From contig OZ024762.1 of NCBI GenBank assembly GCA_964016885.1, forward strand, positions 21,266,001 to 21,330,000: a DNA stretch of 64,000 bases, read 5' to 3'. The translations under genes were made by a program, and so were the position numbers. The notes under the pieces were generated by a model. That model worked only from the letters and a program-made list of their open reading frames with translations. It had not been told where the DNA came from and did no database searches. The stretch is from Eledone cirrhosa. Its lineage: Eukaryota. Within the stretch, counting starts at the first letter, position 1. Each line of letters opens with the position of its first letter. This document shows, in pieces, positions 55,932-55,982 of the stretch.

Positions 55932-55982
55932 AGTTTAAGCAAAGAGTCGCTGCTTTCACCCTTAACGGGATCTTCTGAAACT
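55932..55982 (-). ncRNA. Complete U4A-core hammerhead-like ribozyme (family D, within pLTR 55925-56235)
   Basis: agttt-CAGAAGA-tccc(gttaa)gggt-GAAA-gca(gcgactctt)tgc-TT-aaact, then AATAAA. Confidence 0.65.

Follow-up and report, generated by a model that had tools for sequence, protein, structure and literature searches.

To our knowledge, U4 of the hammerhead core has been treated as invariant. Among the hammerheads of Penelope-like elements (PLEs), those of the Hydra clade were compiled by Craig et al. 2021, whose File S2 gives a canonical motif for 25 of 27 Hydra families; in our own count of its features, all 25 have U4 and the pair C15.2-G16.2, 14 have U·U at 10.1/11.1 and 10 have U17 (PMC8557442). 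The descriptor used there required U4, so families with A4 would escape the published listing. According to the parts considered here, PLE hammerheads are generally slow in vitro (PMC4209133). Natural core variants given by Perreault et al. 2011 are a viroid U4C, A6C, U3-A8, U15.1-A16.1 and U10.1·U11.1, of which the viroid U4C variant is slower in vitro and still supports infectivity, while U·U at 10.1/11.1 is described as the best tolerated mismatch; U4A is absent from the main text of that paper (PMC3088659). Single mutants of the CUGA turn had low activity, and in a double-mutant scan of a type III hammerhead the C3-G8 swap alone rescued changes of this turn (PMC9901934). The triplet CUU is missing from the natural triplets tabulated in PMC1636495.

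Here we describe a motif in a stretch of 64,000 nucleotides from Eledone cirrhosa, referred to below as the window. On the minus strand, 55932-55982 have the layout of a type I hammerhead, and this span is bounded exactly by the two strands of proximal stem I, 5' strand first. Read as 55982-55932(-), the motif has an unusual core letter, A at position 4 (normally U), by which the CUGA turn is altered. Positions follow the standard hammerhead numbering, cleavable triplets the NUH rule, and initiator and splice signals were judged by their usual appearance. The features of the motif and of the related copies in the window are as follows.

55971..55977, minus strand: strand C3-A9 of the core, position 4 (55976) being A, from the sequence and the family consensus.
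55973-55979, minus strand: 7-nt quasi-palindrome centred on core position 4, from the sequence.
55978..55982, minus strand: proximal stem I (Ia, 5 bp), 5' strand, beginning with the base (55982) from which the element is inferred to be transcribed (extra-G junction peak).
55958..55970, minus strand: U10.1·U11.1 mismatch, 3-bp stem II and 5-nt loop II, from sequence and alignment.
55954..55957, minus strand: G12-A13-A14-A15.1 box, identical in 8 subgroup consensuses.
55938..55953, minus strand: stem III (A15.1-U16.1, G15.2-C16.2 and three more pairs, 5 bp in all) with a 7-nt loop III, from sequence and alignment.
55937, minus strand: U17, with the predicted scissile bond at 55937/55936 and the triplet CUU, from hammerhead numbering applied to the sequence.
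55932..55936, minus strand: 3' strand of stem Ia, from sequence and alignment.
55990..55998, minus strand: 5' strand of distal helix Ib, from pair probabilities, set off from Ia by a 7-nt pyrimidine-rich bulge.
55927..56240, minus strand: host insertion, an internally deleted copy of a Hydra-clade Penelope-like element with a (TA)n end, from blastn against the full unit.
853..925, plus strand: family copy, 5'-truncated just ahead of the core and without stem I, from the sequence and blastn against the full unit.
12038..12249, both strands: fold-back pair turning on the quasi-palindrome, with A4 in the plus arm (12110), U4 in the minus arm (12112) and stem I in neither.
12362..12463, minus strand: decayed older copy with 85% identity and a private C7, from the sequence and blastn, adjoining the 3' end of an unrelated LINE-like remnant.
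13661..13915, both strands: inverted pair; the plus arm begins at the first stem Ia base (13821) behind GG and has G17, and the minus arm, from 13813 down, stops short of the core.

The sequence-only reading had assigned A4 to all five copies of its family D, and the cores at 854(+), 12110(+), 13826(+), 12426-12420(-) and 55977-55971(-) do carry it. All five window copies preserve the GAAA box as well as stems II and III, and stem I is complete in three (12426, 13826 and 55977), both as noted at that time. Its triplet CUU holds for the family consensus and follows the NUH rule, but copy 13826 has G17 and reads CUG. Similarly, N7 is polymorphic in the family as had been proposed, but as A/U and not as A/C: C7 is private to copy 12426, being found in 0 of 90 older-subfamily copies and in 0 of the first 100 of 1,899 copies of subfamily D2. 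Loop variation among the five copies had been taken to support a fixed variant, an argument that fails, as the loop differences in the window are single point changes, that is, private decay. Two further arms of the family are present in the window, namely 12112(-), a U4 fold-back product without stem I, and 13813(-), which is cut ahead of the core. The U·U at 10.1/11.1, the distal extension of helix I and the parent element are additions to the first description. In the insertion at 55927..56240(-), the 5' UTR and first ORF codons (56240-56059) are joined to the end of the 3' pseudo-LTR (56064-55927), and the copy at 55971 retains five of the nine helix Ib partner bases (55927-55931), compared with 9 bp in complete copies. 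A search of the 64-kb window against Rfam at the gathering score gave no hits, although canonical-core motifs are also present in it, and a full copy (locus L103:3400-3900) matched no hammerhead family in Rfam even at E 10.

Several other hammerhead-like sequences were observed in the window. A third hammerhead family at 56651(-), with many copies in the fetched loci, combines a minimal stem III with a canonical core and U17 or A17. Two related hammerhead-like strings at 48064(-) and 47804(-) have C at position 4, and a repeat family found in inverted pairs at 4712(-), 4812(+), 21915(-) and 22189(+) has a hammerhead-like core whose stem II region is very long. The hammerhead-like families other than family D in the fetched loci mostly keep U4. 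One canonical-U4 family (L056:1137(+) and L167), with a similar stem II and a minimal stem III, is a candidate relative.

In the 3.0-Gb genome, an exact 33-mer pattern matched 16,630 copies with A4 and 179 with C, G or T, while the reversed-pattern control gave 0 matches; with A4 in 16,630 of 16,809 exact copies, the family departs from the U4 of the canonical type I hammerhead. Subfamily D2 has A4 in 99 of the first 100 of its 1,899 copies. Older subfamilies were found by varying the patterns, and a search in which none of the seven core positions was fixed matched 99 old copies, 90 of which were fetched. In these 90 copies, with the core unfixed in the search, position 4 is A in 88, C in 2 and U in none, N7 is A in 59, U in 30 and G in 1, and each of the other core positions has the consensus base in at least 78. 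When 30 copies were chosen on their 3' half alone, 24 had the A4 core, 5 were cut into the core and 1 had U4 at a fold-back. Contigs under seven other organism labels, whose sources may be close relatives, also cover the core, with no other letter listed at position 4. Low-depth, near-identical copies of the stretch were additionally seen under other organism labels in runs X9 and X10 and may reflect close kin, transfer or contamination.

A looser pattern yielded 1,261 U4 matches in the genome. A hidden U4 subfamily was nevertheless ruled out, with 20 of 20 examined U4 loci being fold-back or inversion junctions without stem I; a few of 30 loci with a base other than A at position 4 are point mutants with native flank. 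Because the seven bases around position 4 are palindromic except for the centre, a fold-back at this site gives one A4 arm and one U4 arm, as at 12110/12112, and U4 copies are mostly fold-back artefacts. The probable origin of A4 itself is a flip at the centre of this 7-nt quasi-palindrome, the same event that remakes U4 in fold-backs. No sister A4 family with a different stem II was seen in 100 of 111 listed matches, and in a metagenome scan covering at least 119 stretches the 81 matches examined included none with stems I and III and none with the ORF. The consensus asked for by the sequence-only reading as a check has A4 in the genome-wide copies, in D2 and in the older subfamilies alike. 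The genome-wide counts and the older-subfamily sample rule out post-insertion decay as the origin of A4, and the subfamily comparison upholds the claim of a fixed core variant of the parent element: A4 is fixed in all sampled subfamilies of the master lineage.

The flanks of the genomic copies lead to a Penelope-like element that has the motif in both pseudo-LTRs. Complete tandems place it about 200 nt upstream of the ATG and again about 930 nt past the stop codon, with a spacing of 3,259 bp; this unit length is a little over the usual 3 kb of the Hydra clade. Several copies have uninterrupted frames of 709-713 codons. In the 709-aa ORF product, reading by eye placed reverse-transcriptase motifs at 250, 314 and 346 and, after 564, a GIY-YIG-like segment at the C terminus, in addition to the Hydra-clade motifs RWR at 37 (a conservative change from RWK), DKT at 115, CxCX5C at 564, CxxC at 662 and CxH at 690. 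Pseudo-LTR tandems, inverted 5' copies and (TA)n targets are further traits of the clade found here. The element thus matches the description of the Hydra clade, with published Hydra proteins compared by eye. Searches of the protein against Pfam and PDB gave 0 hits; a protein search returned 20 relatives with 35-44% identity, and for distant relatives the core state was taken from the published table. With at least 40,409 copies (counted by the exact 23 bases 3' of the scissile bond) and intact ORFs, the element is young and very abundant. Between stop codon and hammerhead (loci L103/L104 and L017/L061), the element has a GT-AG intron of about 750 nt; it is retained in most copies and precisely lost in 251, from which it follows that the strand of the motif is the transcribed strand. 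The hammerhead expected near the 3' end of Hydra-clade elements is therefore matched in position and layout, with an A4 core in place of the canonical one. The sense strand of the unit yielded no other canonical core, so that the motif is the sole hammerhead of the element.

Three other assignments were considered and rejected. A ribozyme on the opposite strand was dismissed, no canonical core with C3 having been found there. A non-LTR retrozyme, which is a non-coding tandem without ORF, was ruled out given that the element is autonomous with intact ORFs. The LINE-like remnant beside copy 12426 is not the parent, as this copy is a truncated family member adjoining it; the remnant itself (12464-12960(-)), directly upstream of the copy, is a 3' coding end with a CCHH-like finger. 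One further repeat recurs beside many D2 copies (L111-L140), which suggests that insertion is targeted or that the element is composite.

Constraint on the motif was assessed in eight subgroups, sorted by eye after the sequences had been seen (78 of the 90 older copies, 30 D2 copies and 26 young copies). Divergence from the own subgroup consensus is 6-10% in the older subgroups, 3% in D2 and 0% in the youngest. Across the eight consensuses, 9 of 14 free positions (N7, loops II and III) changed, compared with 1 of 30 core and stem positions (Fisher p=2.5e-5); the latter are those not fixed by the search patterns, the classes follow the standard model and were counted after the alignment had been seen, and the positions are not independent. 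The single changed core or stem position is a CpG transition that preserves its pair. G5, A6, G8, A9, G12, A13 and A14 stay, including the catalytic G8 and G12, and at the family level N7 toggles alone; with C3 and A15.1-U16.1 also in place, the core has the remaining bases expected of a hammerhead around a free N7. That A4 itself is unchanged is weak evidence for its selection, because 5 of the 14 free positions are unchanged as well.

With stem I open, 94.9% of cells in the three helices are paired (23 pairs, 56 hand-picked copies), compared with 18-53% when slid. Past the pyrimidine bulge, stem I continues as the distal helix Ib (9-10 bp), with pair probabilities of 0.75-1.0 in complete copies. 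At the outermost pair of Ib, 31 of the 56 hand-picked copies have U-A and 10 have C-G, a result reached in 1 of 500 shuffles, which represents essentially one evolutionary event, and this U-A/C-G pair is lost in the two youngest subgroups. In the proximal stems, no propagated compensatory change was seen, the outer stem II pair having been checked in 100 of 111 listed double variants. Stem Ia has a predicted pair probability of 0.01-0.14, compared with 0.46-0.97 for stem I in three canonical families, for which shorter fragments were folded. Furthermore, A4 permits a predicted rival helix that covers the GAAA box.

The junctions of the insertions provide footprints of the RNA that was copied. 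There is no junction peak at the predicted scissile bond, and the bases 9-10 nt upstream of it are missing in at most 945 of 40,409 copies, spread out without a peak. In a hand check, 20 of 100 listed matches break exactly at the scissile bond, and about half of these breaks arise by microhomology to the stem I strand in inverted orientation. Immediately ahead of stem Ia, a non-native base stands in 2,606 of 19,868 copies (13%), compared with about 1% at position 4, and in the first 100 such cases it is G in 53, A in 25 and C in 22. At 28 of 30 loci the native flank gives way to other sequence precisely at the start of stem Ia, in 20 of the 30 behind a G that is often not templated by the adjoining sequence. 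In full-length LINE-1 and SVA insertions, an untemplated 5' G has been read as reverse-transcribed cap in the sections used of PMC4859970; the extra G at a sharp 5' junction is common to both cases, and it stands here at the base with which stem I of a Penelope-like element's hammerhead begins. These junctions lead us to place the transcription start at the first base of stem Ia, and insertions with stem Ia and the extra-G junction are likely to copy capped RNA that was uncut at +46. The junction evidence speaks against efficient cleavage of the copied RNA; it does not prove inactivity, because cleaved RNA might be destroyed or religated. The same extra-G junction occurs in a canonical-core family, in two events among the fetched loci. 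Uncut templates are therefore not specific to A4, and the junction is probably a feature of the clade rather than a result of A4. A fold-back pair in the window at 5191(-)/5207(+) belongs to a second hammerhead family (canonical core, U·U and long loop III), with the junction at the first stem I base behind G.

The explanation that we favour, with confidence and doubt about equally balanced, is that of a type I hammerhead of a Hydra-clade PLE which carries A4 and is predicted to be an attenuated, slow or conditional self-cleaver whose fold is kept by selection. Attenuation would agree with the low activity of single CUGA-turn mutants (PMC9901934), with the slower viroid U4C (PMC3088659), with the absence of CUU from the tabulated triplets (PMC1636495) and with the low predicted pair probability of stem Ia. 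The element would be transcribed from the upstream pseudo-LTR, with the putative start at the first base of stem Ia. The 5' ribozyme copy would then comprise +1 to +51 of the capped RNA, with the weak 5-bp stem Ia alone and without helix Ib, and would probably be near silent, while the 3' copy, complete with helix Ib, might engage in loop-loop contacts. Reverse transcription would begin about 25-30 or about 140 nt beyond U17 and would need a template that is uncut or religated at both copies. Because of this requirement, a slow ribozyme would cost the element little and may even help, and a slower core could become fixed while selection holds the fold. A more specific version, in which the U4A hammerhead still cleaves, rescued by the G15.2-C16.2 flip and the distal helix, with the copy at the capped 5' end silent and that in the 3' pseudo-LTR competent, appears rather doubtful to us.

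A tentative alternative that deserves serious consideration is a catalytically dead fold, retained as a handle for the reverse transcriptase near the 3' priming site or as an internal promoter around the start site. The motif covers the putative start site and sits 25-30 nt from the main 3' end of the insertions, and recognition by promoter or reverse transcriptase could explain the constraint without catalysis. Such a fold would be consistent with insertions that pass through the scissile bond without a junction peak, with a transcription start at the first base of stem Ia, with the joint occurrence of three rate-lowering features (A4, CUU and U·U) and with the predicted rival helix concealing the GAAA box. 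As far as the portions used here go, D. virilis Penelope has an internal TATA-less promoter in its pseudo-LTR (PMC2377424), and Cervera and de la Pena leave room for functions besides cleavage (PMC4209133). In contrast, the sole toggling core position is the one that is free in catalysis, while the seven positions listed above from G5 to A14 stay, and a promoter does not predict the pairing of helix Ib with its compensatory pair.

That the variant is instead fully active, with the G15.2-C16.2 flip, helix Ib and loop contacts remodelling the core such that A4 performs about as well as U4, is in our view unlikely. A4 and the 15.2-16.2 flip are both fixed here and both occur in 0 of the 25 Hydra families of File S2 (PMC8557442), tertiary contacts have been proposed to offset core variants (PMC3088659, in the text considered), and the family is highly successful by its copy number. 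On the other hand, thousands of insertions appear to be copied from capped, uncut RNA, and CUGA-turn changes went unrescued save for the one swap in the scan cited above, which concerned a single type III hammerhead (PMC9901934).

Far less probable still, and largely refuted, is a dead neutral relic that hitchhikes in a successful element, with A4 as the inactivating hit. Naiad elements proliferate without canonical hammerheads, and hammerheads were suggested as possible parasites of PLEs in the sections of PMC8557442 used here, but core and stems are constant over the eight subgroup consensuses while loops and flanks drift, and the divergence of the older subgroups means that there was time enough for decay. 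Retention of A4 as part of a 3' splice acceptor (pyrimidine tract and CAG) within the core, suggested by the acceptor-like sequence ahead of G5, by the intron in the 3' region of the element and by the D. virilis intron that ends at helix I (PMC4209133, in part), can hardly be credited, given that the 251 spliced retrocopies have their acceptor some 100 nt upstream of the core and 0 of 53 other donor-site variants join to core or stem I.

A lineage with A4 fixed and the rest of the catalytic pattern kept over eight subgroup consensuses, in at least 40,000 copies, represents a natural experiment that addresses the open question of what PLE hammerheads are for and whether cutting is needed. Searches that require U4 miss whole families, and if the U4A core indeed cleaves at one end of the element and is silent at the other, standard U4 descriptors would overlook a whole lineage of such ribozymes. 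The mapping of the start site predicts different folds for the 5' and 3' copies of one ribozyme. In addition, the family supplies a ready series of variants: wild type, U4, ancestral N7 and loop states, and forms with and without helix Ib.

In the literature searched, the coverage of which was partial so that an earlier record may exist, no report of a natural U4A core was found. A natural U4A hammerhead core fixed family-wide therefore appears to be new, whereas family-wide core exceptions as such are known (U3-A8, viroid U4C). The motif shares with the Hydra-clade hammerheads, as far as described in the parts of PMC8557442 considered, the sense strand, the position near the 3' end in a pseudo-LTR, a real stem III, (TA)n targets, the short stem II behind U·U, and U17, and Hydra-1_aJap and Penelope-n_HM are closest in layout. 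It differs by A4, G15.2-C16.2, a longer loop III and the predicted distal helix Ib; in these 25 listed families, U·U and U17 are ordinary while A4 and G15.2-C16.2 are not. Metazoan PLE hammerheads, in the material used from PMC4209133, are likewise found in pseudo-LTRs and have family-wide core exceptions (U3-A8 in Schistosoma) together with low in vitro activity. However, they are minimal, dimer-dependent and have U4, while the 5-bp stem III described here may allow folding as a monomer. The variants of Perreault et al. resemble the present one in their single core deviation, with reduced and possibly useful activity in their case, and U·U had already been described there as tolerated; in contrast to those variants in the main text of PMC3088659, position 4 is changed here to a purine, which an autonomous retrotransposon carries as a fixed state in tens of thousands of copies.
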